Shown here in pieces: positions 17,621 through 56,655 of a stretch of DNA of 64,000 bases (the stretch's first letter is position 1; each line of letters starts with the position of its first letter). Position numbers and translations under genes: made by a program. A model generated the notes under the pieces. The model did not search any database. It saw only the letters and a program-made list of their open reading frames with translations, and was not told the origin of the DNA. This DNA is from an uncultured Gemmatimonadaceae bacterium (GTDB taxonomy: Bacteria; Gemmatimonadota; Gemmatimonadetes; Gemmatimonadales; Gemmatimonadaceae). Location: positions 64,001 through 128,000 of the forward strand of contig CAWAGQ010000014.1 of NCBI GenBank assembly GCA_963781585.1, given 5' to 3'.

Positions 17621-18214
17621 CTACGCGTCGTCGAGCGGCCAGACCGTTCGCAACGGAATCTCCAGCGGCTCGCACATCGACGGGAGCGCACACGAGCGTT
17701 GCGCGTGCAGACAGAACTCGCGCGCGGGCCCGAAGGTCATCTGTCGCGCCCACAGTGCGCCGCCGGCACTCCGCACCAGAGGCCGCATCGCTTCATACAG
17801 GTCCGCGTACGATGCCGCGTGTGGCTTCGCGAACCAGTAGGCGAACCGCGGCGGCTCCTCCGAGCTGCCGAGCCGCAGGCTGTACAGCCCCGCGGTGCCT
17901 CCCGCGCTCGCCACCGCGGCGTCGTCGTGCGCAACCTTCCGGCCCGCCGTCACCGCGGCCTCGTTCAGTGGATCGAGCGCGGCCGAGCCGCTCAGCAGGT
18001 ACCAGTCCTCGTACGAGTCTCCGCCCTGATTCGCCCACGGCGCGCCGTGCACCGCAAGGCAATAGGAGTTGGAAAAACCCGCCGACGGCCCGGCGGCCAG
18101 CGTGAGATGAAAATGCCGGAGACGCGCCTCGTAGTCGTCGCTGGCCACCGAAGGCACGCGCCAGTGGAAGAAGAGATAGGCGAGCACGTCAGGTCGGGAT
18201 TCGAAGGTGGACAA
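17621..18214 (-). CDS. Hypothetical protein
   Basis: Protein-like composition (LAYLFFHW, YEDWYLL) and co-oriented with its neighbours. Confidence 0.7.
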   Translation of the reverse strand: MSTFESRPDVLAYLFFHWRVPSVASDDYEARLRHFHLTLAAGPSAGFSNSYCLAVHGAPWANQGGDSYEDWYLLSGSAALDPLNEAAVTAGRKVAHDDAAVASAGGTAGLYSLRLGSSEEPPRFAYWFAKPHAASYADLYEAMRPLVRSAGGALWARQMTFGPAREFCLHAQRSCALPSMCEPLEIPLRTVWPLDDA

Positions 18215-18371
18215 CGCCCGGTGCTGGATCCGGGCGCCGGCGCGGCGGAGTTCGACAGTCCCTCGGAGCAGGGAGCCGGGCGGCTCTCCCGCGAGCGCCG
18301 GCCCGCGGCCCGCAATCCCCCCCGCATCGGCCGACTCCGCCCGTTAGGCTGGCCCGGGCGGTCGAGACAAC

Positions 18372-19754
18372 CTAGTCCCCGTTCAGTCCATCTACGAGTC
18401 CCAGCACGACATCGTTCACATTGGTGCCCGTTAATCCCGTGCGCAGCAGCCCGCCCACCGCATCGAGCGATGCGTACGATGCGTGGGCGCCAAGATCGGA
18501 CGCGGGGTCCCGCCCGCGGCCCGCGATTCGCGACCAGGTGGTCGCATCGACCACCGCGCCCGCCGCGTCGGTGGGACCATCGCGACCGTCCGTCCCGGCC
18601 GCCAGCACGGTGATCCCTCGCGCCGCCGATCCTGCCCGGTGCAGCGCAGCCGCGCAGGCGAGCGCCAATTCCTGGCACCGCCCCCCCGGCGCGGCGGGGG
18701 ATGGGCCAAGACGCACGGTCGTCTCGCCTCCCCAGATTGCAAGCACTCGCGGCCGCGCGCCTAACGACTGACCTCGCGCGCGCTCCCGCGCTCGAACCAG
18801 CTCGCCGGCCACCATCGCGCCGGCGGCGGCGGCATCACCGCGCAGCGCGGCGGGTTCGACCCGCACCGCGGTGATGGCCGCCGCCGCCGCCGCCCGTTCG
18901 GCGCCGCGGAGCGCGTCACCGTTGTCCAGAATTACCGACACCGTCGTCCGGGCGAACATTGCGTCGCCCGGCTTCGGGGTCTCCGCCTCCGTCCCCGCGG
19001 CCACACGACGCAAATAGGCGCGCACACTGGAGGGCAGTGCCGGTTCGAGCTGGCGCTCGGCCAACAGAGTGAGCAGCCCGTCCGCCGTCAGGCGATCCGG
19101 CGTGCATGGGCCGGAGCCGATATGCGCCGGGTCGTTCCCCGGAACGTCGGACACGATCAGGCAGTGTGTCCGGTCCCCGCTGAGCGCGGCGGCGAGTCGC
19201 CCCGCTCCCCACCGCAGGACGCGTTTGCGAACCGCGTTCATGGTCGTGATGTCCACGCCCGAGGCGAGCAGCAGGGTGAACAGCTTCTGCAGGTCCGCGA
19301 ACGTCACCGCGTCCACCGGGCCGGCAATCAGACTGGTCGTGCCGCCCGATAGCAGCACCAGGACATCGGCACCCTTCGGGATCCCCGCCACCACTTCTCC
19401 CAGCCGGATCGCGGCCTGCCGCGACCCCTCGCCCGGGACCGGGTGCTCTCCCGTCAGCGATTCGAGCGCGGGAATCGCGGTCGATGGATGATCGGGAGCG
19501 ACGATTGCGCCGCCGGCCAGCGAAAGATCGCGAGCGCGTAGTGCTTGAGCCGCGCCGGCGCACATTGCATGGGCCGCCTTTCCGACAGCGACCACCCACA
19601 CCGGGCCACCAACCGGGCCGAGGGCGGCGACTGCCTGCCGTGTCGCGTGCTCCGCGTCGGCCGCCCGGACCGCTGCCGCGAAGAGGCTCTCGAGAAGGAC
19701 GCGCGCGGACGAAGGGACCGTTGACTGACTCCCCACGCCGTCACGCCCCGGCAT
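18372..19754 (-). CDS. Glycerate kinase, MOFRL family
   Basis: VGKAA, HPVP, LSGGT, SDVPG, GSGP, GGETTV, GGRCQE, GTDGRDG, TGTNVND. Confidence 0.92.
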   Translation of the reverse strand: MPGRDGVGSQSTVPSSARVLLESLFAAAVRAADAEHATRQAVAALGPVGGPVWVVAVGKAAHAMCAGAAQALRARDLSLAGGAIVAPDHPSTAIPALESLTGEHPVPGEGSRQAAIRLGEVVAGIPKGADVLVLLSGGTTSLIAGPVDAVTFADLQKLFTLLLASGVDITTMNAVRKRVLRWGAGRLAAALSGDRTHCLIVSDVPGNDPAHIGSGPCTPDRLTADGLLTLLAERQLEPALPSSVRAYLRRVAAGTEAETPKPGDAMFARTTVSVILDNGDALRGAERAAAAAAITAVRVEPAALRGDAAAAGAMVAGELVRARERARGQSLGARPRVLAIWGGETTVRLGPSPAAPGGRCQELALACAAALHRAGSAARGITVLAAGTDGRDGPTDAAGAVVDATTWSRIAGRGRDPASDLGAHASYASLDAVGGLLRTGLTGTNVNDVVLGLVDGLNGD

Positions 19755-19777
19755 ACCACCGGAGCGTAACGCGTGCG

Positions 19778-20374
19778 TCAGAACGAACCTTCCTTCGGCT
19801 GTGGCACAAGTTTGTGGACTTCGACGGCGAGTGTGTCGTAGTCCGATTTCACCAGTACCCGGAACGGCTGCATCTTGAAGGTGATCCGTCCATCAGGGCC
19901 AATCACGTAGACGTGGCGGCTGTCCATCCCGCTCTTCTCGCCGTACACGTCGTACATGCGACTCACCTTCGCCCCGGTGTCGCTCACGAACATGATCGGG
20001 AACGCGGACTCGCGCGACCAGCTTGTCAGCGCGGTGTCGGGATCCACGCTGATGCCGAGTACGACGACGTGCTGGCCGTTGTTGAAGATCGTGGCGTACT
20101 GATCACGGTACGCCTCCATTTGGACCGTTCAACCCTTGGTTCGCGCCTTGGGGAAGAACGCGAGCACGACCGTACTGCCGCGCAGGTCCGAGAGCTTCTG
20201 TCGCCCTCTCAGGGCGCCGTATCGCGTGATGCCGGTGAATTCGAAATCTGGCGCGACCGTTCCCACAGCTGGTCCAACGGGAGCCGGCGCAGCCGGCTGC
20301 TGACCGGCGAGCGGCCACACCATCGCGCTGGCCAGCACTGCGGCGGCGGAAGATCTCCGGAACGCCTTCCTCAT
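19778..20374 (-). CDS. Exported peroxiredoxin (AhpC/TSA, Bcp-like), probable selenoprotein with in-frame UGA at 20129-20131
   Basis: ORFs 20129-20374 and 19778-20119 are in frame and read VVLAFFPKARTKG*TVQMEAYRD. The TGA sits at the peroxidatic Cys of PxxxTxxC. GISVD and R.VYVIGPDG follow. Confidence 0.88.
20093..20114 (-). promoter_or_regulatory. Candidate bacterial SECIS hairpin
   Basis: mRNA GGCGUAC-CGUGAUCA-GUACGCC: perfect 7-bp stem starting 15 nt after the UGA, with G then U at loop positions 2-3. Confidence 0.7.
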
Positions 20375-20636
20375 GATGACTCCGCGTCAGGTGTCCGAAT
20401 CGAGCTGGTCGGAGCCTCAACGATGAAACGTGGAACGCGTGCGCGCAACGCCGACGGACGACGTTCCACACGCAATCGACCCGCTGGGTCTGCAATGCGC
20501 AGTGCTCGATTCCCGGCCCCGCGAGCGCGCGTCGCGAGACCACGGTTCAGCTCCGAAGGGTCCCGCGAAGTGGACATTGCTTTGTCCTGATGGTGGACAA
20601 TCACCACGGCATCCTCTACCCGCTGGGGCAGGAGGA

Positions 20637-20654
20637 CAGGCACGATGCGTGCTT
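20637..20654 (+). promoter_or_regulatory. Putative sigma-54 (-24/-12) promoter
   Basis: AGGCACGATGCGTGCT matches GG-N10-GC with GGCAC, about 35 nt upstream of the 20688 start. Confidence 0.55.
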
Positions 20655-20687
20655 GAGCCACGGTCGTGACGAACGCCCGGAGGGACG

Positions 20688-21167
20688 ATGTCGAGAACAA
20701 CGCTGATTCCATTGCTCGCGCTGCCGGGTCTGGCGCTGCTCGCCGCCTGCGGTTCGGACGCACCGCGACCGGACGCGGGTCTTCAACAGGACTTGTCGCT
20801 GGCGGCGCAGTCGTACCCGTACCAGCCGACCCTCTCGCCAGCAGAGCAGGGGTACGTCGCTGGCTATCCGAACCAGGCCGGCTATCGAGCTCCAGGTGGA
20901 AACGGGGGCTACCACCCGGTGGCGACGAGAGCACCCGGCAGCGGGACTATCTACCGCGCGCCTGCCCCAACCGGGACGGCACGACAGCCGAGCCATGTGG
21001 TCAAGAACACCAGGCGTGACGCGGCGATAGGGGCCGTGGCGGGAGCCGCCATCGGCGCCGTCACGAGTCGCGACAAGTTGAAGGGCGCGGTGATCGGAGC
21101 GGCGGCCGGCGGGCTACTTGGGGCCGTCCTGGGAAACAACGTCGACAAGAAGCGCGTGCCGGATTAA
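20688..21167 (+). CDS. Glycine-zipper lipoprotein
   Basis: RBS GGAGG, lipobox [18 protein letters not shown]...[17 protein letters not shown]. Confidence 0.85.
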
Positions 21168-29736: not shown

Positions 29737-30737
29737 CCGGCGCGGGCCTCCGCTCCGCGCAGGCAGCGATCGACGGAGTCCGTGCCGCAATCGAGCGGCT
29801 GGACGAAGGGCGACACCCCGAGGAAAACGCGGCGGACCTGCTCGAGGTCTGGGAAGGCGTCCAGGCAGCCCTGCGCTCGCTGACAGGCGCACCCGCGCTG
29901 ACCGGCCAGGCGGTGATTCGCGAGGCCCGGCAGCGCAATCTGCTGTCGCTGGATGAGGCCCACGCCCTGGTGGATTTCAGCGCCGCCGCCGAGCGGTCAC
30001 ATGACGCGGGTTACCGGCCCAACGCCAGCGATCTGGTCGCCGCGCGCGGGGCGTACCACCTGTTCGAGGCGGCACTGGCCCGTACCGAGGCACCGGCAGC
30101 AAGTCCGCCGCTCCAGCCGTCCGCCGCGCCGCCTGCCGCCGAATCCGAGATCAGTCCCCTTCCGGAACCGCGAGCGCGCAGGCCCAATGTGCTGGTCCGC
30201 GTCATCGTCCTGGTGGCCCTTCTCGCGGTGGTGGGAGTGGCGGGATACTACGCGCTCCAATATCGATCGCGCGTAAGCCATCTGCAGCGGGGCACGGCGG
30301 CCTACGTGGCCGGCGATCGCTCCACCGCGAAGCGGGAACTCGCGGCCGCGGCGGCAGCCGACCCGAAAGCGGCCATCCCGCACGTTTACCTGGCGCGCAT
30401 TGCGCGCGAGGAAGGGGATCCGCTGACCGCTGCGCGCGAGCTCACGACGGCCCTCAACCTCGAGCCGGAGAACGCGCTCGCGCTTCGCGAGATGGGAGCG
30501 CATCTGCTTGCCCTCGGCAACCTCGATCTCGCGCGACGGTTCTATGTTCGCGCGGTTCAGGCGGACCCCGCGGACAAGCCGGCACTGGGCTACCTTGCGT
30601 GTACGCTGGCTCGCCTCGGCCGGTTTGACGAAGCGCAGCGCTTCCTCCAGCGGGCGGGTCCCGGGGAATGGAGTGCGTGCGTGTCGGCCGTGGTTCCTCC
30701 TCCCGGAGCACCCCCGCGGGTCGGCGTGCCGAAGTAA
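29733..30737 (+). CDS. Single-pass membrane protein with C-terminal TPR repeats
   Basis: Helical N-domain, Pro-rich linker, TM helix, TPRs; ATGA overlap with the upstream gene. Confidence 0.82.
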   Translation: MTGAGLRSAQAAIDGVRAAIERLDEGRHPEENAADLLEVWEGVQAALRSLTGAPALTGQAVIREARQRNLLSLDEAHALVDFSAAAERSHDAGYRPNASDLVAARGAYHLFEAALARTEAPAASPPLQPSAAPPAAESEISPLPEPRARRPNVLVRVIVLVALLAVVGVAGYYALQYRSRVSHLQRGTAAYVAGDRSTAKRELAAAAAADPKAAIPHVYLARIAREEGDPLTAARELTTALNLEPENALALREMGAHLLALGNLDLARRFYVRAVQADPADKPALGYLACTLARLGRFDEAQRFLQRAGPGEWSACVSAVVPPPGAPPRVGVPK

Positions 30738-30807
30738 GTCCGGGTCGGGAAGCAGACCCGGTCGTTTCCGCCCGTGGCATCTCCGCCTGCCGACACCGCA
30801 AGGTCAC

Positions 30808-33432
30808 GTGTTCGAGCCAGAGTCCGTTCTTCGCCATACGCTTCCCAACGGCTTGACCGTTCTCGTACGTGCGGACCGGTCCGCGCCGGTTGGCGCGATC
30901 GTGACTTACGTCAAGACGGGGTACTTCGATGAGCCGGACGAGGTCGCAGGCATCTCGCACGTGCTGGAGCACATGTTCTTCAAGGGCACACCGACGCGCG
31001 GGGTGGGTGAGATCGCGCGCGAGACGAAGGCGGTCGGCGGGTACCTGAACGCGCACACGATCTACGATCACACGTCGTATTTCGCGGTGCTGCCACGGGA
31101 GGGATTCCAGCGCGGTCTCGAGATCCAGGCGGACGCGTATGCACACGCCCTTCTCGATGGCGACGAGTTGGCCAGGGAACTCGAAGTCATCATCCAGGAA
31201 GCCAGGCGCAAGCTGGATTCACCGGGCGCGGTTGCGATGGAGACCCTGTTCGAGGTACTCCACGACCGCCATCGCATTCGACGCTGGCGGATCGGGCACG
31301 AAGGGTCGCTGCGCGCGCTCACCCGCGACCGGGTCCAGGCGTTCTACCGCAACTTCTACCGTCCCGGCAACACGATTCTCGCGGTGGTCGGCGACGTGGA
31401 CGTGGACGTGACGTTGCGCGAGATCGAGGTCCTGTACGGCCCGCTGGCCGACGGGGCGGTAGCGCGGGAGCCCGGATTGCAGGAGTCGAGTGCGCCGGGA
31501 TTTCGTTATCGGGAGCTCTCGGGCGACATCACGCAGACACACCTGGTGTTCGGGTGGCGGACGCCGGGGGCGCTGCACCGCGACACGCCGCTGCTGGATC
31601 TGTTCGCGGTGGTGCTCGGCACCGGGCGCGGATCGCGATTGTACCGTGCGGTGCGCGAGCGACAGCTCGCGTCCGCCGTTGCGGCTGAGAACTACACGCC
31701 CGCCGAGATTGGCGTCTTCACGATGCGCGCGGAGGGACCCCCGCCTCATGGACGGGCCGCGGCGGCGGCTATGTGGCGGGAGCTGGAGCAGGCCAGGGAC
31801 CGCGGCATCGACCCGCGCGAGGTCGCGCGGGCGCAGCGTCTGGTCGAGTCGCGCTGGCTACGGCGTCTGGAGTCGATGGAGGGGCAGGCGACATTTCTTG
31901 CGGAGTGGGAGGCGTTAGGCGACTGGCGGCTGTCGCAGCGGTACTACGACGCCACGCTGTCGGCCGGTGCCGGGGAGGTGGCCGATGCCGCGCGTCGCTT
32001 GCTGGATGCGTCACAGGCGTCGCTGCTGGTGTATCGGCCCGAAAGCGCGCCGGTGTTTGCCCGGGATGCGGACCAGGCCGGCCGGGTCGTGGCCTCCCCG
32101 GAGTCGCTGGCCAGCGACCTGCTGCCGGTTGCGCCGGCACCCGAAGCGGCCATCAGGACCGCGCCGCCAGCGTCGGTCCTGCGCGAGGCGCAGATCGGCG
32201 CGGTCCATGTGTTTCGCACGCGCCGCGGCGTTCCGATCCTCGTCAGGCGGCGACCCGGCTCGCCGATCGTGCATGTGGGCATCTACAGTGCCGTCGGAAG
32301 CGCGCGCGAATCGGACCAGCTGGCCGGGCTGGCGACCGTGAGCGCGCGCGCGACGGTCAAGGGGAGCGAGCAGCGATCGGCGGAGGCGATCGCCTACGCC
32401 TCGGAGCTGCTGGGCGGCAGCATCGCGCCGAGCATCACCGCCGACGGCATGGGATGGACCTTCTCGGTGCCGGTCACTCGCACGGCCGACGCTGTGGCGC
32501 TCTTTGCCGAGGTGGTGCTGCACCCCCGGCTGGCGGGAGAGGCGGTCGAGACCGAACGAACGATCGCGCTCGCCAATCTCGCCGAGTTGCGCGACGACAT
32601 GTATCGCTATCCGGTGCGGCTTCTCAACGCCGCCGCATACGACGGTCATCCCTACGGCCGGGGACTGCTCGGCAGCGAGGAGACCTTGCGGGCGATTGGT
32701 GAGGGCGATGTGCGTGCCTGGCACCAGTCGAGCGTGCTGACCGCTCCGGTGGTCATCGCCGCGGTTGGCGACGTTGACGAGCCCGGACTTGCCGGGATGC
32801 TCGCGTCTGCGTTCGACGAGGTACAGATGGCGCCGTCGGTGCCCCTTGCGGCGCCGACGTGGCCGGCGGCGCCGCGTCAGGTGGCGGAACATCGCGATCG
32901 GGCGCAGACCGCGCTGGCCCTGGCATTCCCGGCGCCCACGCGCCGCGATCCCGAGCGGTTTGCGGCGCTCCTGGTGGCGGGGATTGCCAGCGGTCTTGGC
33001 GGCCGCTTCTTCGAGGCGCTGCGCGAGCAACGGTCGCTGGCGTACACCGTGCATGCGGTGAGCATGGAGCGCGTGCAGTCGGGCGCGTTCGCGGCCTACA
33101 TCGCGACGTCACCGCAGCAGGAGGACGAGGCACGGGAGGGTCTGCTCGCGCAGTTCGCGCGGTTGCGGGAGGAGCCGGTGTCGGAGGAGGAGCTGACGCG
33201 AGCCAGGACCTACGCGTTAGGCAGTCACGCCATCGCCTTGCAGAGTGGCGGCGTGGTGCTCGGCGAGATGGTCGACAGCTGGCTGTTCGGAACGGGACTG
33301 AACGAACTGGAGGCATTCGAGCAGCGGCTGCGCGCGGTGACGGTGGACGGCGTGCTCGCCCTGGCGCAGCGCTACTTCGACCCGGAACGGCGTGTGGAAG
33401 GCGTGGTGCGAGGGGAAGGCCAGACACGATAG
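30808..33432 (+). CDS. M16 family zinc peptidase (two fused halves)
   Basis: LPNGL, HVLEHMFFKGT (HxxEH), NAHT..DHT.Y; second half lacks the zinc motif. Probable GTG at 30808. Confidence 0.93.
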   Translation: MFEPESVLRHTLPNGLTVLVRADRSAPVGAIVTYVKTGYFDEPDEVAGISHVLEHMFFKGTPTRGVGEIARETKAVGGYLNAHTIYDHTSYFAVLPREGFQRGLEIQADAYAHALLDGDELARELEVIIQEARRKLDSPGAVAMETLFEVLHDRHRIRRWRIGHEGSLRALTRDRVQAFYRNFYRPGNTILAVVGDVDVDVTLREIEVLYGPLADGAVAREPGLQESSAPGFRYRELSGDITQTHLVFGWRTPGALHRDTPLLDLFAVVLGTGRGSRLYRAVRERQLASAVAAENYTPAEIGVFTMRAEGPPPHGRAAAAAMWRELEQARDRGIDPREVARAQRLVESRWLRRLESMEGQATFLAEWEALGDWRLSQRYYDATLSAGAGEVADAARRLLDASQASLLVYRPESAPVFARDADQAGRVVASPESLASDLLPVAPAPEAAIRTAPPASVLREAQIGAVHVFRTRRGVPILVRRRPGSPIVHVGIYSAVGSARESDQLAGLATVSARATVKGSEQRSAEAIAYASELLGGSIAPSITADGMGWTFSVPVTRTADAVALFAEVVLHPRLAGEAVETERTIALANLAELRDDMYRYPVRLLNAAAYDGHPYGRGLLGSEETLRAIGEGDVRAWHQSSVLTAPVVIAAVGDVDEPGLAGMLASAFDEVQMAPSVPLAAPTWPAAPRQVAEHRDRAQTALALAFPAPTRRDPERFAALLVAGIASGLGGRFFEALREQRSLAYTVHAVSMERVQSGAFAAYIATSPQQEDEAREGLLAQFARLREEPVSEEELTRARTYALGSHAIALQSGGVVLGEMVDSWLFGTGLNELEAFEQRLRAVTVDGVLALAQRYFDPERRVEGVVRGEGQTR

Positions 33433-33517: not shown

Positions 33518-33566
33518 CATGACCTTTGGCCTTTGGCCTTTGGCCTATGACCCTTGGCCTTTGGCC
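33518..33566. repeat. Heptamer tandem repeat TTTGGCC, 7 units
   Basis: CATGACC TTTGGCC TTTGGCC TTTGGCC TATGACC CTTGGCC TTTGGCC between convergent genes. Confidence 0.85.
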
Positions 33567-34816
33567 TACTCCGGCACCTCCACCTTGCCCAGGAAGAGTA
33601 TGGTCCCCGTGAGTCGCTCGCGGATCGCAAAGACGAACGGACGGTTCACCCGAATGGCCTCGGGAAGCGAGGTGAGACCGATGCCCACGGTCGTTACCGC
33701 GGCTGCCTCGGTGCCGACTTCGTTCACATCGACGAACGTATTCTGCTTCACGTAGCTGATGTAGAGATGGTGTCCCGCGCTGGCCGACATGCGGGTGAAA
33801 TCCGCGCCGTCGGGCACAAAGGCCCGCTGCATCCCCAGCCGCTGGAGGGCGGGGTTCAGCGTGTCCTCCCAGGTCAGCGTGAACTTCGGGAGGTACAGGT
33901 CGGCGTCGTCATCGTACAGGTTCGCGGTCGCGGCAGCCCACGAGTCCGCGGAGAGCGCCGCGATCGCCTGATCGACCGAGACACCGGACAACGGCATCAG
34001 GATCGTCATCACGAACGCGTCGCCGCCGTACGGCAGCTCGACGACGGTGGCGTTCGCGGTCGTACCAAGGCGGAATCCGCCGGTCCGGTGCATGGTGGGA
34101 ACGCTCACCGACGGCCCGCTGGACGGGATGAACGGCTGGGGATGGGTCTCACTCTCCTTGAAGCCCTGGCGCCAGTCACCCTTGAAGTAGATCGCGTTCA
34201 TGAGGAGCATCACCAGGTCCGGTTCGATGTGCTCGATGACGCGAGGGATCCTCCCGCTGGTTGTGCGCCCTGCCCAGGCGTTCACCGTATCCACCGCCAG
34301 CGGCGAGGCGAAGTCCAGGCCCGCCACGTCGGCGTCGAAGTACTGTGCGGCGTCGCTCAGGAACGACGGTTCGACTGCGCCGCCGAAGGCGTCGTCGTAG
34401 AAGATCGCGTTGGCGATCCGGAAGTCGACGCGCCGGTCGAGGTTTCTCAGCAGCGCGATGAGGGACTGATACGACCGGTTCAGTTCGTCATGCGACTGGG
34501 TTCCGAAGCCCAGCGTCGTGCGCATCTCGTCGAACGTAGTCCCGGCGGCGCCGTCCATCGTCATGCCAAGCGCCATCGAGGCGCTGAGCGGGGACAGGAA
34601 GACGTTCTGTCCCGCGAACGACGGATTCTCTTCCCGGAGCAGGTTGAAGCCGAACACGTTCGAAGCGTCGATCATGGCCGCTTCGGTCGCCGACAGCGCA
34701 CGCGGGAGCGACGAGATCCTGGATGGCGTGGGGTCCGGAGCGGATGGGTCCGCGCATGCCGCGGCGGCCGTCACCAGTAACGGCAGCAGCAGGGCGGGAC
34801 GACGAAGCAAGGTCAT
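33566..34816 (-). CDS. Serpin family lipoprotein
   Basis: Lipobox AAAC, NVFLSPLS, NAIYFKGDW, LPKF, hinge VNEVGTEAAAVT, NRPFVFAI, LFLG. Confidence 0.95.
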   Translation of the reverse strand: MTLLRRPALLLPLLVTAAAACADPSAPDPTPSRISSLPRALSATEAAMIDASNVFGFNLLREENPSFAGQNVFLSPLSASMALGMTMDGAAGTTFDEMRTTLGFGTQSHDELNRSYQSLIALLRNLDRRVDFRIANAIFYDDAFGGAVEPSFLSDAAQYFDADVAGLDFASPLAVDTVNAWAGRTTSGRIPRVIEHIEPDLVMLLMNAIYFKGDWRQGFKESETHPQPFIPSSGPSVSVPTMHRTGGFRLGTTANATVVELPYGGDAFVMTILMPLSGVSVDQAIAALSADSWAAATANLYDDDADLYLPKFTLTWEDTLNPALQRLGMQRAFVPDGADFTRMSASAGHHLYISYVKQNTFVDVNEVGTEAAAVTTVGIGLTSLPEAIRVNRPFVFAIRERLTGTILFLGKVEVPE

Positions 34817-34975
34817 GCAGGTGCCTCTCTGAGCGGGCGAAACCGACTTGTGCGCGACGCGCTGCTCACCGAGATGACACGTGCGGCGCCGGAATCCCCG
34901 ACTCCTGCGGGTTCCCACCGGTCCCGAAACCGAGGCCTGCGCGATGGCGCGACGCCTGCGGCCGTGTCCGCGCGC

Positions 34976-40106: not shown

Positions 40107-40403
40107 ATGGCGGAGGAGACATACGACGAAGGCCGGGAACGCAATCTTGAGGCGCTGCTGCGGGCCTTCGCCGAGCGCGTCGGCGCGCTCGACCATGAGG
40201 GACAGTTGCTGGCGCATGCGGGAGAGCTGCTGAAGCTGATTGGCGACATTCGCAGTGAGCTCTTCCATTACGAAGTGCGGGTCACCTACGACACCCCGGA
40301 GATCGCCGAGAATCGGCGGATCGTATCCGAGGCCACGGACACCGACGAGAGCCGATGGGAAAAGACCGAATGGAGTCCCGACGAGGACGACGAGCGGAAG
40401 TGA
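40107..40403 (+). CDS. Small hypothetical protein
   Basis: ATG at 40107; stop overlaps the DsbA-like GTG. Confidence 0.75.
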   Translation: MAEETYDEGRERNLEALLRAFAERVGALDHEGQLLAHAGELLKLIGDIRSELFHYEVRVTYDTPEIAENRRIVSEATDTDESRWEKTEWSPDEDDERK

Positions 40404-41215
40404 AGTCGGGCGCAAAGCAGACGGCGCCGGGCGCGGGCGCGAAGCAGCGGAACGTGGTCCAGGAATCGTCGTCGCGCGGGAAGGGACCGTTCTACGTCGT
40501 GCTGGCGGTGATCGCGGTGGTGGCGGGGTCGCTGATCGCGTATCAGGCAAAGCGGCCTACCGCACGCGTGGTCACGATCGATCCGACGACGCCGTTGCCG
40601 GCGGCCCGTGGCTATTCGCTGGGGAGCGACAGCGCACCCGTACACGTGCTGGAGTTCGCCGATTTCGAGTGCCCGGCGTGCGAGCAGTTTGCCACGCTCA
40701 CCGAGCCCGACGTCCGAAAGCGGCTGATCGAGACCGGGCGCGTCCAGGTGCGGTTCCTGGACTATCCGCTCGACGTGCATCGCAATACGTGGGAGGCTTC
40801 GATGGCGGCGGCCTGCGCCAACGAGCAGGGGAAGTTCTGGGCCATGCACGACGCCCTGTTCAACAACCAGGACCGCTGGAACGGGGAGGCGACGAACCGA
40901 CCGAAGGGGGTGCTCAAAGGACTGGCGCAGTCGATCGGTCTGGATGTGCCCCGGTGGGAGTCCTGTTACGACACGCAAAAATTCAAGCTGGATATCGCGG
41001 CGAACCAGAAGGAGGGTGAGCGGCGGCTGGTGCAGTCCACCCCCACGTTCGTGATCGGCTCGAAGATGATTCCCGGGGCGCTCGGCTACGACACGTTCAA
41101 GGCATACGTCGACACGGCCCTGGCGTCGGGGGACACGGCTTCGGGCCTCCGCGCGCTGCCGGAGCGCGACACGGGTTTGCCGCCGCGAGCGCCGGTCAGC
41201 CCGAAGGGGTCGTGA
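40400..41215 (+). CDS. DsbA-family thioredoxin-fold protein
   Basis: TM anchor, G...APV...EFADFECPAC, V.STPTF. Confidence 0.92.
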   Translation: MKSGAKQTAPGAGAKQRNVVQESSSRGKGPFYVVLAVIAVVAGSLIAYQAKRPTARVVTIDPTTPLPAARGYSLGSDSAPVHVLEFADFECPACEQFATLTEPDVRKRLIETGRVQVRFLDYPLDVHRNTWEASMAAACANEQGKFWAMHDALFNNQDRWNGEATNRPKGVLKGLAQSIGLDVPRWESCYDTQKFKLDIAANQKEGERRLVQSTPTFVIGSKMIPGALGYDTFKAYVDTALASGDTASGLRALPERDTGLPPRAPVSPKGS

Positions 41216-41300
41216 GAGGCGCGGCCGCCAGTCGGCAGAGCGGAGGGCGCGGGCCAGGGCGACGGGGAGCCATGTTCGCCCGTAGTCGTTAGGCGGCCCC

Positions 41301-41735
41301 ATGAGCAAGCGAATGGTCGTGGCCGCGCTGGCTCTGGGCGGCGTCTTCCTGGCTGCATACCTCGCGCTCTACAAGGTCGGCATCATCGGCCAGCTCGTGT
41401 GCAGCGTGGGCAAGTGCGAAACCGTGAACACCAGCCGGTGGTCCGTCCTGCTCGGGTATCCGGTGGCGGCCTGGGGCGTGGTCTATTACGTGGCGCTGTT
41501 CGCGGTTGCCATGGCCGGCGTGAGTGACCGGTTCGCGAGCGCCGCCTGGGTCCCGGTGGTGCTGCTGGGCCTTACCACGTGGGGGCTGCTCTTCTCGGTG
41601 TGGCTCACCTACCTGGAGCTGTTCGTCATTCACGCCATCTGCGTCTGGTGCGTGACGAGCGCACTCATCGTGAGTGCTGCCTTCGTCGCCAGTCTGCTGG
41701 ACTGGCGTGAACGCGCGAGTGAGACGGCGGGCTGA
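41301..41735 (+). CDS. Vitamin K epoxide reductase (VKOR) family protein
   Basis: CSVGKCETVNTS.WS..LG.P, YLELFVIHAICVWC. Confidence 0.93.
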   Translation: MSKRMVVAALALGGVFLAAYLALYKVGIIGQLVCSVGKCETVNTSRWSVLLGYPVAAWGVVYYVALFAVAMAGVSDRFASAAWVPVVLLGLTTWGLLFSVWLTYLELFVIHAICVWCVTSALIVSAAFVASLLDWRERASETAG

Positions 41736-42294: not shown

Positions 42295-44964
42295 TCACCG
42301 CGATCGTCCCGTTTCCGCCGCCTTCGGCGCGGCCTGGTCGAGTTCCGCGCGGATTGCCGCCGCGTTCCCGGACTGTCCCAGAGCGTCGTACTCCTCCACC
42401 AGATCCTTGCGCGCATATTCGAGCCAGGTGGCCGGAGGGCTGGACTGCACCGAGAGGTTGTCGTACCCCGCGCGACTCTCCGACAACGCATCCGCGTAGC
42501 GCTTCGCATGCACCAGGGTGCGACCGAGGCGGACGCGGGCGATGCCGATCAACTGATGACCGGGCGGAAGGACTTCGGTGTACCGTCGAAGGACGTCGCG
42601 AAAGACCTGCTCGGCGCGGCGGTAGTCTTTGCGCGCGTCGTACACGCCGGCCAGGTTCGACAGCGCGATGCCGATGTAGTAGTGCTTGTCGTGATAGACG
42701 GTCCGGTAGATGTCCGCCATGCGGCGAAAGTCAGCCTCGGCCTCGTCGAGGTTTCCGCGTTGCTGTGCCACGCGGCCCAGTTCATTGAGCGCCGAGGCGA
42801 CGCGCGGGTGCACGGTGCCGTACACTCGCTCCTGAATGGCAAGCGCTTCGCGGAGCATTCCCTGGGCTTCCGCCAATCGGCCCTGCGACACGATCGCGCG
42901 TCCCAGCAATGTGAGACTCGATGCGGTCTCCGGATGATCGTTGCCGTACCACTGCCTGACGATGACCACCGCTTCCCGGTCGTAGCGCTCGGCTTCCGCG
43001 AAGTGTCCTCTCTCGAACTCGATGGCGCCCAGGTTGAGCAGGTCGTCGGCGACGTTGGGATGGCCCGCGCCGTTCACCTGCCGGTCGATCCTCAACATGC
43101 GCCTGTTGAGCGAATCCGAGAGGTCGAGATGTCCGACGTAGAAATGCGAGTTTGCGAGTTCGGTGAGACTGCTCCGATAGTCGGGGCTCGTCTCACCGCC
43201 ATGCGCCGCGTTCAGGCGCACGGCCTCTTCGAGCACAGGAATGGCGGCGTTGTAGTCGCCGCGATCCTCGAGAACGCGGCCGAGCGCCGCGGTGGCCCGG
43301 GTGCGCACGGGGTGGTCCGCCGGAAGAGCGCGGCGGGCACGTTCCAGGGCGTCTCGGATGACGGTCTCGGCGGTGTCGTACTCCGCCTGGGCGTCTCGCA
43401 GGAGTCCGAGGGAAACCAGACTGGTGATGACGTCTTCACCGTCCGGACCGAACAGCGCACGTCGCCGATCGAGCGCCGTACGCAGGAGCGAGTCCGCCTG
43501 CGCGAGGTTGCCCAGCTGCTGGTAGATCCCACCGAGAGTCTGGTACAGCGCGGCCTGGACCGCGGGTTCGGCGCGGAGGCTCTGCGCCTCCTGCACGCCT
43601 CGATCGACCATGGTCACCACGCGCAGGCTCTCGGCCGGTCCCGCCGCTTCGTCTCCGCCCTGGAACAGGCTGAGCATGAAACTCTGGATGCGCTGAGTGC
43701 GCGCAGCCTGGGCGACGGCGGTGTTGCGGGCGGTGGCCAGCCGAACGGCATAGAAGGTCACCAGCGCCACGACCGTCAGGAACACGGCGGTCGCGCCCGC
43801 CAGCGGACGCCAGTTGCGCCGGACGAACTTGTTCACCCGATACCGCATCGAGTCCGGGCGGGCCTCGAGCGGTTCTCCCCTGAGGTAGTGATCGATGTCG
43901 CGGATGAAGGCCTCGACCGTCCGGTACCGTCGCTGGGGATCCTTGTGCATCGCGGTCAGACAGAGCACGTCGAGGTCGGCCCAGGCGCTCCCGCTCACCG
44001 CGGGGAAGCGCTGGCCGCGCAAGGTCGTCATCCGCTTCGCCGCCGCCGAGGGCTTCTCCGGATCCCGTTCCACGAGGATCGTTTCGGCTTCCGCCGGGGA
44101 GCGGTTCGACAGATCGAACGGGAGCCGTCCGACGAGCAACTCGTACAGGATCACGCCCAGCGAATAGACGTCCGTGTAGATGCCCACCGGCTCACCGCGA
44201 ATCTGCTCGGGAGCCGCATACGCGGGAGTCATCAGCCGGACCGCGGTGCGGGTCTGGTCCACCGGCGCCTCGGCGCTGGCAAGATGCTTGGCGATGCCGA
44301 AGTCGAGCAGTCGGATGGAGCCGTCCTGCCTGACGAGCACGTTCGATGGCTTGAGGTCGCGGTGGATGATCAGATGGCGGTGCGCGTGCTGCACGGCTTC
44401 GCCGACCGCACGCACCAGCGCCAGACGTGAGGCGACGGAGAGTGCGCGTGACTCGCAATACTCCGTGAGCGGCTCGCCCTGGACGTACTCCATGACAAAC
44501 CACGGCGTGCCGTCGGGCAGCGTGTCGGCATCGTAGAGTCGCGCGATCGAAGGATGATTCAGCTGGGCCAGCAAGCGCTGCTCGACACCGAATCGCTCCC
44601 GCCGGGCCGGCGAGAGCCAGGCGTCCCGGAGGATCTTGATCGCGACCAGCCGGTGGAGGTCAGCGCGCTCGGCGAGGTACACCACCCCCATGCCGCCTTC
44701 GCCCAGGACACCGCGCAGGCGATAGGGGCCGAAGTCCTCCGCCTGGAGTGACGGCGGCAGCGCGCCGCCCAGCATCTCGTGCGCCAGCTGGGCCACATCG
44801 CGGTCGATCAGCGAAGCGCCACGCGCGTCCTCCTGGAGGAGCGCCAGCACGTCGGCCACCACACCGGTGTCATCGCCGCACTGACCTTCCAGGAACGCGC
44901 GTTGCGCCGGCTCCGGCAGGTCGACCGCATCATGAAAGAGCGCCTGAATCCGCTCCCAACGCAC
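42295..44964 (-). CDS. Ser/Thr protein kinase with TM helix and TPR repeats
   Basis: LGEGGMGVVY, VAIK, HRDLKPSN, DFGIAK, YAAPEQ, DVYSLG, TM helix, TPR array. Confidence 0.96.
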   Translation of the reverse strand: MRWERIQALFHDAVDLPEPAQRAFLEGQCGDDTGVVADVLALLQEDARGASLIDRDVAQLAHEMLGGALPPSLQAEDFGPYRLRGVLGEGGMGVVYLAERADLHRLVAIKILRDAWLSPARRERFGVEQRLLAQLNHPSIARLYDADTLPDGTPWFVMEYVQGEPLTEYCESRALSVASRLALVRAVGEAVQHAHRHLIIHRDLKPSNVLVRQDGSIRLLDFGIAKHLASAEAPVDQTRTAVRLMTPAYAAPEQIRGEPVGIYTDVYSLGVILYELLVGRLPFDLSNRSPAEAETILVERDPEKPSAAAKRMTTLRGQRFPAVSGSAWADLDVLCLTAMHKDPQRRYRTVEAFIRDIDHYLRGEPLEARPDSMRYRVNKFVRRNWRPLAGATAVFLTVVALVTFYAVRLATARNTAVAQAARTQRIQSFMLSLFQGGDEAAGPAESLRVVTMVDRGVQEAQSLRAEPAVQAALYQTLGGIYQQLGNLAQADSLLRTALDRRRALFGPDGEDVITSLVSLGLLRDAQAEYDTAETVIRDALERARRALPADHPVRTRATAALGRVLEDRGDYNAAIPVLEEAVRLNAAHGGETSPDYRSSLTELANSHFYVGHLDLSDSLNRRMLRIDRQVNGAGHPNVADDLLNLGAIEFERGHFAEAERYDREAVVIVRQWYGNDHPETASSLTLLGRAIVSQGRLAEAQGMLREALAIQERVYGTVHPRVASALNELGRVAQQRGNLDEAEADFRRMADIYRTVYHDKHYYIGIALSNLAGVYDARKDYRRAEQVFRDVLRRYTEVLPPGHQLIGIARVRLGRTLVHAKRYADALSESRAGYDNLSVQSSPPATWLEYARKDLVEEYDALGQSGNAAAIRAELDQAAPKAAETGRSR

Positions 44965-45008
44965 CGAATCTATGGTCGCCTCCCGAGCCGCGCGCCCGAC
45001 ATCACAAG

Positions 45009-45542
45009 CTAGCGGCTGCGATGCAGCTCATTCGCCAACCATGCCCTCGCCGCACGCCAGTCGCGGAGGACGGTGGCCTCCGACACCTGCAGATACTCTG
45101 CAGTTTCGGCGACGTCGAGGCCGCCAAAGAAGCGGCATTCGACCATCGCGGCCTGCCGCGGACTCATCCGTCCCAGATCTTCCAGCGCTGCGTCGAGGGA
45201 CAGCAGTTCGTCCGACGAGGTGACCGCCTCGCCAAGGGAATCATCGAACGTGACGACAGCCAGCGCCGACCCTCCCCGTTTCGCCGCGTGACGCCGGCGT
45301 GCCGCCTCGATCAGCACCTGGCGCATCGCCCGCGCGGCGATCCGTTTGAAATGCAGACGCGAGGTGCCCGCCAGGTGCGGAGAGTTCGCCAGCTTGAGCC
45401 AGGCCTCGTTGACGAGAGCGGTCGGACTGAGTGTCGCGTTGGGGTCGTCCCGCCGAACGGTGGCCGCAAGGCGCCGCAGCTCCTCGTACGCGGTGTTGAA
45501 CAGGTGGTCGAGCGCCCGTCGGTCCTCCGACAACGCCTCCAT
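45009..45542 (-). CDS. ECF-type sigma factor, kinase-associated (ECF43/TIGR02999-like)
   Basis: YEELRRLA, TLSPTALVNEAWLKL, AMRQVLI, RFFGGL..E.A..L.VS.ATV.RDW..ARAWL. Start at 45542 or 45569. Confidence 0.92.
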   Translation of the reverse strand: MEALSEDRRALDHLFNTAYEELRRLAATVRRDDPNATLSPTALVNEAWLKLANSPHLAGTSRLHFKRIAARAMRQVLIEAARRRHAAKRGGSALAVVTFDDSLGEAVTSSDELLSLDAALEDLGRMSPRQAAMVECRFFGGLDVAETAEYLQVSEATVLRDWRAARAWLANELHRSR

Positions 45543-45846
45543 CCGCTCGTTTTCCCCTCCCTGGGTCATGGGCTGGTCGATGAGCCTATTGAGGTTGTGC
45601 TGGCGCAGCGAATTCGTCCCGGCGACAATACTCCGCGCTTCCACGCGCTCTGCGGTGGCGGTCGCTCTCCAGCCCGGCGTGGCGCCGGCAGCGGAAGGGA
45701 TCTGCCACTGGTGAAGGGTAAGCGTACCACGCCGGGACGGTCGGTGGCAATCAGTACCGTGGTGCGCGTTGCCGCCAAGCCGGAGTCGACAGCGAGCCGG
45801 CCTGGCCGCGTCGCCTTCGGAGGGGGAAGTGACTGGTCGTCGGCGG

Positions 45847-46509
45847 TCAGTAGTGCGGCGGCAACTGGGACGTGAGCGCCATTCCATGCACGACCGCGGC
45901 CATGTGCATGAGCACGTGTGAGACGATTGCGGCCAGTGGACTCCCCGTGAGCAGGTAGGCGAGCGTGATGAGCGTGTTGCCGATTACCGGCTGAACAAGT
46001 TGCGGTCCGCGAAACTCCGCAAAGCCTGCATGATACATGGCGGTGACGATCGCGCTGCCCAGCAAGGCCACCAGCCCCCATCGCCATCGTGCGCCGGGCC
46101 GCTGGAGTTCCTCCGTCGGCCTCGAGCCGTAGAGACTCAGCACGGGAATCACGGACAGGAGCAACGTATCGACCACGCCGTATACCACCCCGTACCAGGT
46201 GAGCGCCCCTGCGAGCGCCAGGCCGTGCGGTGAGGCACTCCCCGGTTGCGAGAAGACCTGGCGAATGAGGACGACGCCCAGCGCGATGCCGGCCACGACA
46301 CCCAGACGCCACAGGCGGGCGAGCTGGATGCGCGGACTGATCCGTTCAGTCCGTGCATACAGGATCACGAGGCCGCTGACCGCCAGCGTGTGTGGAACGA
46401 GGAACAGCGGGCGCGAGAAATGAAGCGTGCTGGAAAATACGAACGAAGTGGCGAAGCCCAGGGCGCCGGCGAGCAGCGTCCACCGCCAGCCTCTTGCACT
46501 TTGTGTCAC
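45847..46509 (-). CDS. Hypothetical integral membrane protein
   Basis: Multiple TM helices with His-containing segments (MYHAG, SHVLMH). Confidence 0.75.
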   Translation of the reverse strand: MTQSARGWRWTLLAGALGFATSFVFSSTLHFSRPLFLVPHTLAVSGLVILYARTERISPRIQLARLWRLGVVAGIALGVVLIRQVFSQPGSASPHGLALAGALTWYGVVYGVVDTLLLSVIPVLSLYGSRPTEELQRPGARWRWGLVALLGSAIVTAMYHAGFAEFRGPQLVQPVIGNTLITLAYLLTGSPLAAIVSHVLMHMAAVVHGMALTSQLPPHY

Positions 46510-54502: not shown

Positions 54503-55803
54503 CGGGAGTGGGGAACAGCCTGGGAGGAGTCGAGACCTGCGCGGTCCGGCCGCGGATGGGTGAAACCAGCCGTTATCAAGTGCCACATGTACCCTGGCCG
54601 CAAGACCTCCCGCGCCGGCACGAAGTCCCCGGTGACGCCGACCAGGAGATCGGCCAGGTCCGCGCGCGCAGCGAGCGAGCGGGCCGCGTGGTTGATCAGC
54701 AGAGGGAAGGCGACGGCGACGCCCACGGCACGCTCTACCTTCCACTTTCCGCCGAACTCACGGCGACGCGCCATCTCGTAGGCGCGGAGGGCGTCCTGTG
54801 CGCGGCGCGGGACCTGAGCGCGGACGGCCTCGCGGGCGTGCGAGGCCAGGATCTCCCCACCGCGCAGCGCCGCGTAGATCCCCTCGCCGGTGAACGGGTC
54901 GAAGAAGTCGGCCGCGTCGCCGACGAGGACAACCCCCGGCGCCCAGGCCCGCCTGGCCCGCCAGTTGAACGTCCCGACTGCGCGCACAGTGGTTACGCGC
55001 GTTGCTCTGCTCAGGCGTTGGGCGATGCCGGGAGCGCGCGCAAGTCGACGCGCGAGAAACCCGGCGGCGTCGCCCGCCATGCCCGGCGATTCGTGTGCCC
55101 CCACCACCAGCGCCACGTTCGTCACCCCCAAGCCGACATCTGCCAGTCCGACGTAGCCGCCCGCGAAGACATGCATCTCCCCGCAGTCGCCCACGCCGTC
55201 CACTCCGCAATAGTGCGTCACCAGCGCCACCCGCGTCGGCCACCGGCCGTGGCCGCCGAGGTGCGCGCGCCGCGCCACCACCGACCGCAGACCGTCGGCA
55301 CCCACCACCAGGGGCGCCCGCATCGTGCGCGTCCCGCCGGCCGCATCGCGCACCACGACGCCCGTGATGCCCGCGCGACCACCTCCCGGTGCGAATTCGA
55401 GGTCCACGACACGGACCTGTTCGCGCAGCCGCGCGCCCGCTGCCTCCGCGGCCCGCACGAGCAGCGCGTCGAGCGCCAGCCGGCGGATGCCGAGGCCCGT
55501 GTCACGAAATCCCGCGAATCCATGGGACGCCGCAAACTGGCCGTGCACTTCGACACCGTTGGGTGCGCGCACGCGCATGCCGGTCAGATGCGAGGCGCCC
55601 AGCCGCTCGACCTCCGCCAGCACACCCATCGCGTCGAGCAGGCGCGATGCCTGTGGACTGAGGTACTCGGCGCAAGGCTTGTCGCGGGGGAAGCGGGCCC
55701 GATCCAGCAGCAGCACATCTACCCCCGCCCGCGCCAGAAAAAACGCCGTGGCCGAACCAGCCGGCCCGGCTCCCACGACGATCACTTCCGCGTCATCCGC
55801 CAT
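54499..55803 (-). CDS. FAD-dependent oxidoreductase (geranylgeranyl reductase/flavoprotein hydroxylase-like)
   Basis: VGAGPAG, FPRDKPC, GADG.RS, GDAA.F.DPFTGEGI. Confidence 0.9.
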   Translation of the reverse strand: MADDAEVIVVGAGPAGSATAFFLARAGVDVLLLDRARFPRDKPCAEYLSPQASRLLDAMGVLAEVERLGASHLTGMRVRAPNGVEVHGQFAASHGFAGFRDTGLGIRRLALDALLVRAAEAAGARLREQVRVVDLEFAPGGGRAGITGVVVRDAAGGTRTMRAPLVVGADGLRSVVARRAHLGGHGRWPTRVALVTHYCGVDGVGDCGEMHVFAGGYVGLADVGLGVTNVALVVGAHESPGMAGDAAGFLARRLARAPGIAQRLSRATRVTTVRAVGTFNWRARRAWAPGVVLVGDAADFFDPFTGEGIYAALRGGEILASHAREAVRAQVPRRAQDALRAYEMARRREFGGKWKVERAVGVAVAFPLLINHAARSLAARADLADLLVGVTGDFVPAREVLRPGYMWHLITAGFTHPRPDRAGLDSSQAVPHSR

Positions 55804-55809
55804 CGGCTG

Positions 55810-56655
55810 TCATGAAAGGGCAGAGGTGACCAAGGCGCCAAGGATCACGCTCGTGAGGTTCACGGCATCGTTGGTGTACCCCCGGAGACCGCCTCGGACT
55901 TCCGTTCGCGTCGCGCAGTTGTGCACGCGGCGCTCGGTCATCCGGCCACACGCGTTGCACCAGCGACGTTCCTGAAGAGTGGCACCGAGCAGGGAGTCCG
56001 CGACAAGCCCGGCGATGCCGCCAGCGACCGTCGCGACAAACGGCACGCGCCAGCGAAGGCCGACCGCCAGTAGCGCGACTGCCGTCGCCCCAATCACGCC
56101 CGCGAGCGTACCAACGGCTGTAATTCCTCCCGACGCCCCATGTGGGAGCGTCCGTCCATTGAGGATATGCCGCGGCGTCCCCCCGCGCACCGTACCGACC
56201 TCGGTGCTCCAGGTGTCCGCGGTGGCTGCTCCGATGGCTCCGACGCCGATTGCCCTCCAGACCATGGCAGGCGCGAGTGACCATCCCAGCGCGGCCAGGG
56301 CGAATACTGCGCCGTTTGCGCCGACCTGCCAGGCATCGCGAGCCGCGCCCTTGTCCACCATGCCGTTGAGGAGTGCACGCCTGGCGTCGTCACGCCACGC
56401 GGAAAGGACCGTGGATGAGATAAAGAAGAACAGGAGCAACGCCACCCAGTCCACTCCTCCGAGCAGGCAGCACGTGCCCACGACCGCGGCTGCCGCCGCA
56501 CCGCCGGCGCTGAGCGCGCGGACGCGGTGAGCCGTCACGGCAAGTAGTGCCGCGACCAGCAGGGCGAAGGCGGTGCGGAAAAGCAAGGTGGAATGCGCGG
56601 AGGTGGACGGGTGCTCGGGGAGGCGAAGTTGGACGCTGGTGGAAGGTTCCGGCAA
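55810..56655 (-). CDS. DUF92 (TMEM19/VTE6-like) membrane protein
   Basis: R...QV.ANG, ATADTWSTE.G, G.SGGIT..G, DSLLGATLQ, N..VN; CxxC..H.C insert. Confidence 0.9.
   Translation of the reverse strand: MPEPSTSVQLRLPEHPSTSAHSTLLFRTAFALLVAALLAVTAHRVRALSAGGAAAAAVVGTCCLLGGVDWVALLLFFFISSTVLSAWRDDARRALLNGMVDKGAARDAWQVGANGAVFALAALGWSLAPAMVWRAIGVGAIGAATADTWSTEVGTVRGGTPRHILNGRTLPHGASGGITAVGTLAGVIGATAVALLAVGLRWRVPFVATVAGGIAGLVADSLLGATLQERRWCNACGRMTERRVHNCATRTEVRGGLRGYTNDAVNLTSVILGALVTSALS

Follow-up and report, generated by a model that had tools for sequence, protein, structure and literature searches.

We found that the window, the whole stretch of 64,000 nucleotides analysed here, carries on its minus strand (19778..20374, terminator included) what is very probably a functional selenoprotein gene, encoding a signal-peptide-bearing peroxiredoxin with a single selenocysteine (1-Sec). 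The case is built from the gene's sequence and that of its relatives: an in-frame TGA at the catalytic position of an AhpC/TSA, BCP-like protein, recognised from its translation, from PF00578, from an AlphaFold2 model and from Foldseek; the codon at that position in related genomes; and a conserved hairpin just behind it.

Reading frame and predicted protein

From 20374 to 19778 (−) the sequence forms a single frame of 198 codons with one internal TGA, and translation of 20374..19781 (−) with TGA read as selenocysteine (U) gives 198 residues. The only internal TGA is codon 82, at 20129-20131 (−) in the context AAG GGT TGA ACG GTC CAA ATG. Standard ORF calling breaks the gene here into two ORFs of the same frame, 20129..20374 (81 aa) and 19778..20119 (113 aa). 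The true terminator (19778..19780, −) is TGA too, with no hairpin of the kind described below behind it. Since TGA is the commonest terminator in the window, ending 31 of 51 predicted genes, and also ends the U82 gene itself, the reading of codon 82 would be a local event and not the product of an altered genetic code. A possible Shine-Dalgarno sequence, GGAG, was read off the sequence five nucleotides before the ATG (20380..20383, −), and a scan of 18200-20800 for promoters and terminators found nothing.

Residues around codon 82 (V-V-L-A-F-F-P-K-A-R-T-K-G-U-T-V-Q-M-E) reproduce the PxxxTxxC signature with U for C, and translation and homolog alignment place the active-site motif P75-K-A-R-T79-K-G-U82 (PxxxTxxU) at 20129..20152 (−). 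The AhpC/TSA profile PF00578 matched with 90 bits (cut-off 26; E = 1.5e-25), its positions 1-123 of 124 aligning with residues 37-166, and the Pfam Redoxin profile matched at 4.8e-14. No NCBIfam equivalog model reached its cut-off for the 198-residue protein: scores were 61.6 bits for BCP (NF006960, cut-off 140), 57.7 for PrxU (NF040737, cut-off 270), which leaves the protein outside the PrxU equivalog, and 49.3 for PrxQ (NF053650, cut-off 260). The closest solved sequences in a PDB sequence search were of the archaeal BCP type (2ywn, 8e-15; 2cx3, 6e-13; 3hjp, 6.5e-12), and AhpE, a 1-Cys enzyme of M. tuberculosis (1xvw), was matched at about 4e-10. U82 aligned to the peroxidatic Cys of 2ywn and 2cx3, while R153 (codon 19916..19918, −), the conserved peroxiredoxin active-site Arg, was matched in 2ywn by the Arg of K-R-A-V-F-V-I-D and was invariant in alignments of 31 and 40 sequences. 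P75, T79 and C82 were likewise invariant in 30 of 30 aligned Cys homologs.

In an AlphaFold2 model built from 40 sequences (pLDDT 88.9, pTM 0.81), strand 68-73 precedes helix 80-91, and residue 82 falls within the first turn of that helix. The top Foldseek matches in the PDB were 9a4d_B (an ACKA-BCP integrative model) and 3hjp, with target-normalised TM-scores of 0.82-0.83 (0.83 for 3hjp). With E ≤ 0.001 as the limit, Foldseek gave at least 500 matches in the PDB, and those listed were without exception peroxiredoxins or BCP. Both sequence and model thus predict an AhpC/TSA peroxiredoxin, nearest to the BCP/PrxQ and AhpE-type enzymes, and its peroxidase activity is likewise predicted. The 198 residues include no Cys. 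Among 76 orthologs tested, comprising 75 TGA forms with the window gene among them and one Cys ortholog, 74 had a mature domain without Cys, and 115 of 117 Cys forms had exactly one Cys in the mature domain. These counts indicate a family of 1-Cys/1-Sec peroxiredoxins that would need an external reductant.

The N-terminus begins M-R-K-A-F-R-R-S-S and continues into an Ala/Val/Leu-rich core, and on charge and hydropathy its first 24 residues or so (20303..20374, −; the end is approximate) resemble a signal peptide. Four K/R are followed by a 10-residue stretch with a mean Kyte-Doolittle hydropathy of 2.23, which satisfies a crude rule that we set up ourselves; of the 76 orthologs tested, 72 satisfied it too. 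Most orthologs have A-x-A-Q-Q just before the mature domain, where the window protein reads P-L-A-G-Q-Q. Solved cytoplasmic BCP homologs align from residue 37 onward only, and the AlphaFold2 model has a pLDDT of 47-50 over residues 1-20. A periplasmic location is suggested by this signal-peptide-like N-terminus. The original prediction, made from the window's letters, had joined the two ORFs into one frame with a single TGA and described the product as a Cys-free peroxiredoxin with a signal-peptide-like start. The coordinates and the Cys count bear out the joined frame, Pfam, the PDB sequence search, the AlphaFold2 model and Foldseek the family, and the K/R start with its hydrophobic core the N-terminus, in the last case by the crude rule given above.

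The codon at the peroxidatic position among relatives

A contig scan of one genome per species returned 527 relatives, and the best 80 of the 527 were analysed, all of them Gemmatimonadota MAGs with a protein identity of 50-67% (best tblastn segment). At the peroxidatic (Cp) column these 80 carried TGA in 79 cases, TGC in one (locus L018) and TAA or TAG in none, a ratio that describes the Sec-rich part of the family and not the whole of it, as the ranking favours relatives of the window protein. Behind this codon, 80 of 80 loci had another 109-135 codons without a stop, reaching the usual C-terminus, and the frame ended at the same place as in the window gene, with TGA at 31 loci, TAG at 27 and TAA at 22. 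We therefore read the in-frame TGA at 20129..20131 as a probable selenocysteine codon, on the strength of its presence in 79 of 80 related species genomes.

Protein sets gave the complementary picture. Among the best 120 protein matches of near length, one was the window's own 113-aa half and 119 were full-length (183-289 aa, 47-61% identical to the window protein), from Gemmatimonadota wherever the source gives an organism name. At the column of U82, 118 of these 119 listed homologs have Cys (117 by pattern, one by eye), and the protein P0119 is printed with Trp. The TGA thus falls exactly at the peroxidatic Cys of PxxxTxxC, as had been proposed, and the suggested alignment of homologs pairs Cys in the full-length proteins with TGA in the genomes. 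In protein sets, relatives of the Sec type are represented only by C-terminal halves of about 105 aa; 118 of the 120 listed short matches begin M-[E/D/N]-A-Y-R-D-Q-Y, with the Met that comes first behind the Sec column. A further short match, P0122, corresponds to the N-terminal half (81 aa), shares 95% identity with that of the window and ends in ...A-R-T-K-G. These half-length entries appear, from their sequences, to be gene-caller output from TGA-interrupted orthologs, and the expectation that standard annotation would split the gene holds for the public protein sets, which contain only the split halves. Protein databases are biased for the question of Sec against Cys, and the DNA-level codon count was treated as decisive.

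Such entries would also be expected if the UGA mainly terminated translation, leaving an 81-aa N-terminal peptide, a 113-aa protein started at Met86, or both; halves such as P0002 (113 aa) and P0122 are indeed in public protein sets, and the shared start of the short matches fits a second product. Starts at Met86 are, however, what gene callers yield after any internal stop. The split would cut through the active-site loop and helix of one thioredoxin-fold domain, whose joined model reaches a pLDDT of 88.9, and neither half has a Cys or a Sec. Moreover, the C-terminal half lacks a signal peptide, and the halves are always adjacent, in frame and parted by the TGA alone. We consider termination as the main outcome extremely unlikely.

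A pseudogene, or a sequencing or assembly error, would leave the same interruption through a recent change of TGC or TGT to a nonsense codon. TGC is a single base change away from TGA, and the closest listed full-length homologs all have Cys at this position. Against this, 79 of 80 species genomes, each assembled independently, share the TGA, as does the 95%-identical P0122, the frame has no frameshifts and no further stops, its downstream half is conserved, and synonymous sites behind the TGA are constrained (see below). Close orthologs with TGC or TGT, together with decay downstream, would point to such a lesion; the opposite was found, with TGA prevailing and the frame open at all 80 loci. 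The prevalence of TGA, the open frame and the synonymous constraint together refute the idea of a broken or misread gene, to which we assign a negligible probability.

We placed the gene in a FastTree phylogeny of 193 rows, consisting of 75 TGA forms, the window included, and 118 sequences labelled Cys, one of which is the Trp-printed P0119; the tree omits five loci in which the trimming motif was absent, as well as two proteins of the 119 whose length lay outside the filter. The window gene was located within a 12-member clade made up entirely of Sec forms (support 99). The Sec/Cys label required seven parsimony changes over the tree, at least three of them forced by well-supported branches, which fits the picture of repeated Cys-to-Sec conversion in peroxiredoxins given in a table of PMC1794560.

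The Pro of the PxxxTxxU motif also varied across the tree. It was kept in 12 of 12 members of the window clade, and the remaining 63 Sec rows have Phe, Tyr or Ile instead. Counted over the window and the 79 other TGA genes, the column was Phe, Tyr or Ile in 68 of 80; the motif was located in 118 full-length homologs (117 with Cys, one printed with Trp), and all 118 have Pro there. Under phylogenetic control, three of three independent pairs were concordant between Sec and loss of Pro (p = 0.25), too few for more than a suggestive association.

On the same strand, a DUF4147/MOFRL protein (18372-19754) is encoded 23 nt after the peroxiredoxin gene and is followed by a C-N hydrolase gene, while an aconitase is encoded upstream. 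Across the 80 related loci the MOFRL gene was present in at least 29, the C-N hydrolase in at least 27 and the aconitase in at least 24, counts that are minima since many loci are shorter than the full flank. The Cys-form locus L018 is among those with the same neighbours, and this synteny supports orthology of the Sec and Cys forms.

The hairpin downstream of the UGA

A hairpin with a 7-bp stem and an 8-nt loop starts 14 nt after the UGA, at 20093..20114 (−), and reads GGCGUAC / CGUGAUCA / GUACGCC from 20114 to 20093. The loop has G at positions 2 and 4. Folded as a single sequence, the 62-nt stretch reached −15.4 kcal/mol, a value equalled or bettered by 48 of 200 shuffles (z = −0.67); in sequence of 68% G+C the hairpin is by itself unremarkable. 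As the fold of the window alone is not above chance, the significance of the hairpin comes only from comparison with the 79 orthologous TGA genes.

That comparison used an ungapped alignment of the window and the 79 TGA genes, with pairs counted on 70 distinct rows. RNAalifold recovered the same hairpin, pairing columns 18-24 with 33-39, at exactly the coordinates originally predicted, and its conservation across the 79 TGA orthologs upholds that prediction. Pairing was found in 99.4% of cells of the 7-bp stem, compared with 14-43% when the partner was slid by one to three columns, and none of 500 shuffles reached the observed pairing values. One pair changed from G-C to A-U at locus L014, at the cost of Ala to Thr and Ala to Val in the protein, and another compensatory change, from G-C to C-G, was shared by L070 and L080; a G-U variant occurred at one pair (L003 and L035). 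The G at loop position 2 was invariant and the U at position 3 was present in 77 of 80. A lower stem of 4 bp may extend the hairpin (columns 14-17 with 46-49; 20118-20115 with 20086-20083, −), with 99.6% of cells paired. It showed no compensatory change at these columns, and we grade it only as possible for that reason.

Constraint extended beyond the stem. Per-column counts and codon entropy delimited a near-invariant nucleotide block from +9 to +55 after the UGA (20076..20122, −), third codon positions included, while synonymous sites varied freely on either side. Codon entropy, calculated among sequences sharing the majority residue, was 1.27 bit over the 20 codons upstream of the TGA, 0.30 bit over codons +3 to +18 after it, 0.12 bit over the hairpin codons (+5 to +12) and 1.17 bit over codons +19 to +49. 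The Cys ortholog L018 had many synonymous differences in the block and kept five of seven stem pairs (by eye). A search of 19500-20700 against Rfam at E ≤ 10 returned no matching family and only two chance matches to eukaryotic snoRNA/scaRNA families. Conservation of this kind argues that the hairpin is a SECIS-type element under selection as RNA; SelB would presumably bind it.

Decoding, significance and relation to known systems

We infer from this sequence signature that UGA-82 would be decoded by SelB. SelB with Sec-tRNA(Sec), tethered at the hairpin 14 nt downstream, would meet the ribosome at UGA-82, and Sec would be inserted in place of a stop. The pre-protein would then be exported, as its N-terminus suggests. 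In the mature enzyme, T79 and R153 would hold the U82 selenolate at the N-terminal end of helix 2, and the selenolate would attack peroxide and be converted to the selenenic acid. With no other Cys in the protein, reduction of the oxidised Sec would have to come from an external thiol partner; synteny revealed no gene for a thioredoxin-like redox partner beside the peroxiredoxin gene in the window or the 80 loci.

The original prediction implied that selA, selB, selC and selD would lie elsewhere in the genome. The search for genes of the Sec machinery covered the 64-kb window together with related flanks of 1.08 Mb (1.15 Mb overall). ARAGORN runs on the window and the 80 related loci yielded neither tRNA-Sec nor any other tRNA; a Pfam scan of 50 window ORFs contained no SelA, SelB or SelD domains; and tblastn with E. 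coli K-12 SelA, SelB and SelD against the 1,147,838 bases of the window and 80 flanks returned nothing at E ≤ 1e-3. We also scanned the window for other in-frame TGA codons on the basis of GC3. Strict thresholds missed the known gene, and relaxed thresholds gave 13 sites including it. By eye, the 12 other sites were antisense to predicted genes, fell on gene boundaries or occupied gaps without annotation. No redox motif was seen at any of them, and they were set aside as selenoprotein candidates.

The UGA might alternatively be recoded through the hairpin to a residue other than Sec, either Cys by a Sec-like tRNA and a SelB-like system or Trp or Gly by near-cognate decoding, with a sulfur or inactive protein as the product. 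Sec-like tRNAs that deliver Cys exist. The empty search of the window and 80 flanks for Sec machinery would agree with this, as would the Trp printed in P0119, which may merely reflect the gene caller's code. So would the scoring of Gemmatimonas aurantiaca T-27, the only Gemmatimonadota row found in the selenium-trait survey of PMC5029168, as negative for SelD, Sec, SeU and Se cofactor (supplementary file 2). The empty search and this row also weigh against the Sec reading itself. However, at the catalytic Cp position only Cys or Sec works, and TGA and TGC/TGT replace one another within the family in the manner of classic Sec/Cys pairs. The spacing of the hairpin and its small G-containing loop are those of a bacterial SECIS (PMC1088965), and so costly a signal for Cys, with TGC one mutation away, would be unparsimonious over 79 species. 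Recoding to another residue is, in our judgement, very unlikely, and selenocysteine is the reading that we carry forward. Our literature search turned up no publication on Sec use in Gemmatimonadota, though subscription journals and supplements could contain one.

If selenocysteine is indeed inserted, an antioxidant enzyme predicted to be catalytically complete has been recorded publicly only as two dead halves. Gemmatimonadota are a common soil phylum, and inventories of their peroxide defence would miss the enzyme since it is recorded only as halves. The conserved UGA and SECIS-type element in 79 species genomes would imply Sec decoding in Gemmatimonadota, while the one survey row found for the phylum is negative. 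Naturally occurring pairs of Sec and Cys forms, some with the active-site Pro and some lacking it, provide a comparison series for the benefit that selenium brings to a peroxiredoxin. What stands out is the phylum-wide spread, the frozen SECIS and the suggestive Sec-linked loss of the active-site Pro. A broader reading, in which Gemmatimonadota decode Sec widely, the exported 1-Sec peroxiredoxin is a main reason for keeping the machinery and its active site has been re-tuned for selenium, is one that we advance tentatively and hold to be rather doubtful. If it were true, the Sec-linked Pro loss would represent a re-tuned active-site architecture and not a simple swap of Cys for Sec.

Sec-peroxiredoxin (PF00578; T/SxxU, TxxU or 'PxxxTxxU') is an established prokaryotic selenoprotein, counted in 78 organisms in a 2016 survey (PMC13188914, PMC5029168), with PrxU from Eubacterium acidaminophilum as its prototype (Sohling et al. 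2001, as cited in PMC13188914). The window gene shares with this family the AhpC/TSA fold with Sec for the peroxidatic Cys in T-x-x-U, a SECIS-type element inside the coding region just past the UGA, and frequent Cys-form homologs with repeated Cys/Sec switches. It differs from PrxU, a cytoplasmic enzyme of an anaerobic Firmicute, in that its product stays far below the PrxU cut-off (57.7 bits against the 270 of NF040737), is closest to BCP-type structures, has a signal-peptide-like N-terminus and no second Cys, and comes from Gemmatimonadota. The BCP/PrxQ enzymes (for example Sulfolobus Bcp4, 3hjp; S. tokodaii, 2ywn; Aeropyrum, 2cx3) and AhpE have the same active-site loop, Thr and Arg, but they are Cys enzymes without signal peptides, and the window protein in turn lacks a CxxxxC resolving Cys.

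The hairpin resembles the SECIS elements of E. coli fdhF and fdnG, and the bacterial SECIS consensus applied in surveys of selenoproteomes, in its position and in its small G-containing loop, CGUGAUCA. To our knowledge its primary sequence is unrelated to that of fdhF, and it is unusually invariant (~45 nt) even though the proteins are only 50-67% identical. A bacterial SECIS is described as a stem-loop just 3' of the UGA, within the ORF, with a small G-containing apical loop (PMC1088965). Prx-like thiol:disulfide oxidoreductases belong to the same Pfam superfamily and are also selenoproteins, listed with UxxC/UxxU motifs under PF00578 in a table of PMC13188914, but theirs is a thioredoxin-type UxxC, whereas the window gene has PxxxTxxU and no CxxC-like pair. 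By every sequence-level criterion the gene appears to be a Sec-peroxiredoxin (TxxU), and it thus adds a member to a kind of selenoprotein already known and does not represent a new system.

Hairpin pairing and readout at the Sec column

We compared the SECIS hairpin among TGA-form peroxiredoxin genes and found its second stem pair replaced, G-C by A-U, in one ortholog (L014:423-488). Both underlying mutations are non-synonymous: one alanine becomes Thr and another Val, and the two residues fall within E-A-Y-R-D-Q-Y-A, a segment invariant in the other orthologs, such that protein sequence was sacrificed while RNA pairing was preserved. Among full-length database homologs, a JGI-sourced relative, P0119, has Trp printed at the Sec/Cys column (…A-R-T-K-G-W-T-I-Q-M-E…). 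This residue probably reflects a TGA that some pipeline translated under a Trp-reading code, while a real TGG codon is a possible alternative.

Envelope redox genes and other gene content

At window 40355-41735 (+), a gene whose product is DsbA-like and has a thioredoxin fold (Thioredoxin_4, 1.6e-30) is followed directly 3′ by one for a VKOR-family membrane protein (VKOR, 2e-25). The two constitute a periplasmic disulfide-forming pair, indicating that envelope thiol-redox machinery is present in the cell; because the pair is oxidising, it does not readily suggest itself as the peroxiredoxin's reductant.

The window also encodes a full-length bacterial serpin (33566-34918, −; PF00079, 5e-96), adjoined by the gene for a large M16 peptidase pair-domain protein (30508-33432, +). 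An 889-aa fusion of a Ser/Thr protein kinase to long TPR arrays lies on the minus strand within 42295-45887, and an ECF-type sigma factor (PF07638) adjoins it. At 54508-55815 the coding strand is ambiguous: the plus-strand ORF of 435 aa had no Pfam match, and the minus strand holds a 436-codon frame with a dinucleotide-binding-like start (M-A-D-D-A-E-V-I-V-V-G-A-G), beginning in frame immediately after the TGA terminator of a DUF92 gene (55810-56655). The minus-strand frame is probably the real gene.

ARAGORN found zero tRNA genes in 1.15 Mb comprising window 1-64000 and the flanks of the best 80 of 527 related loci (L001-L080). This is a low count for so much DNA, but it is plausible because these loci share one neighbourhood.

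The active-site proline

The codon for Pro75, the "universal" proline of PxxxTxxC, lies at window 20150-20152, and the same column was compared in L001-L080. Among the 80 TGA genes, Pro occurs here in just 12, which are those of the clade that includes the window's gene; Phe or Tyr replaces it in 66/80 and Ile in 2/80. On the tree, Sec and Pro loss gave just three independent contrasts, all concordant (3/3, p = 0.25). Among full-length homologs whose motif was matched, the proline was retained in every case (118/118).
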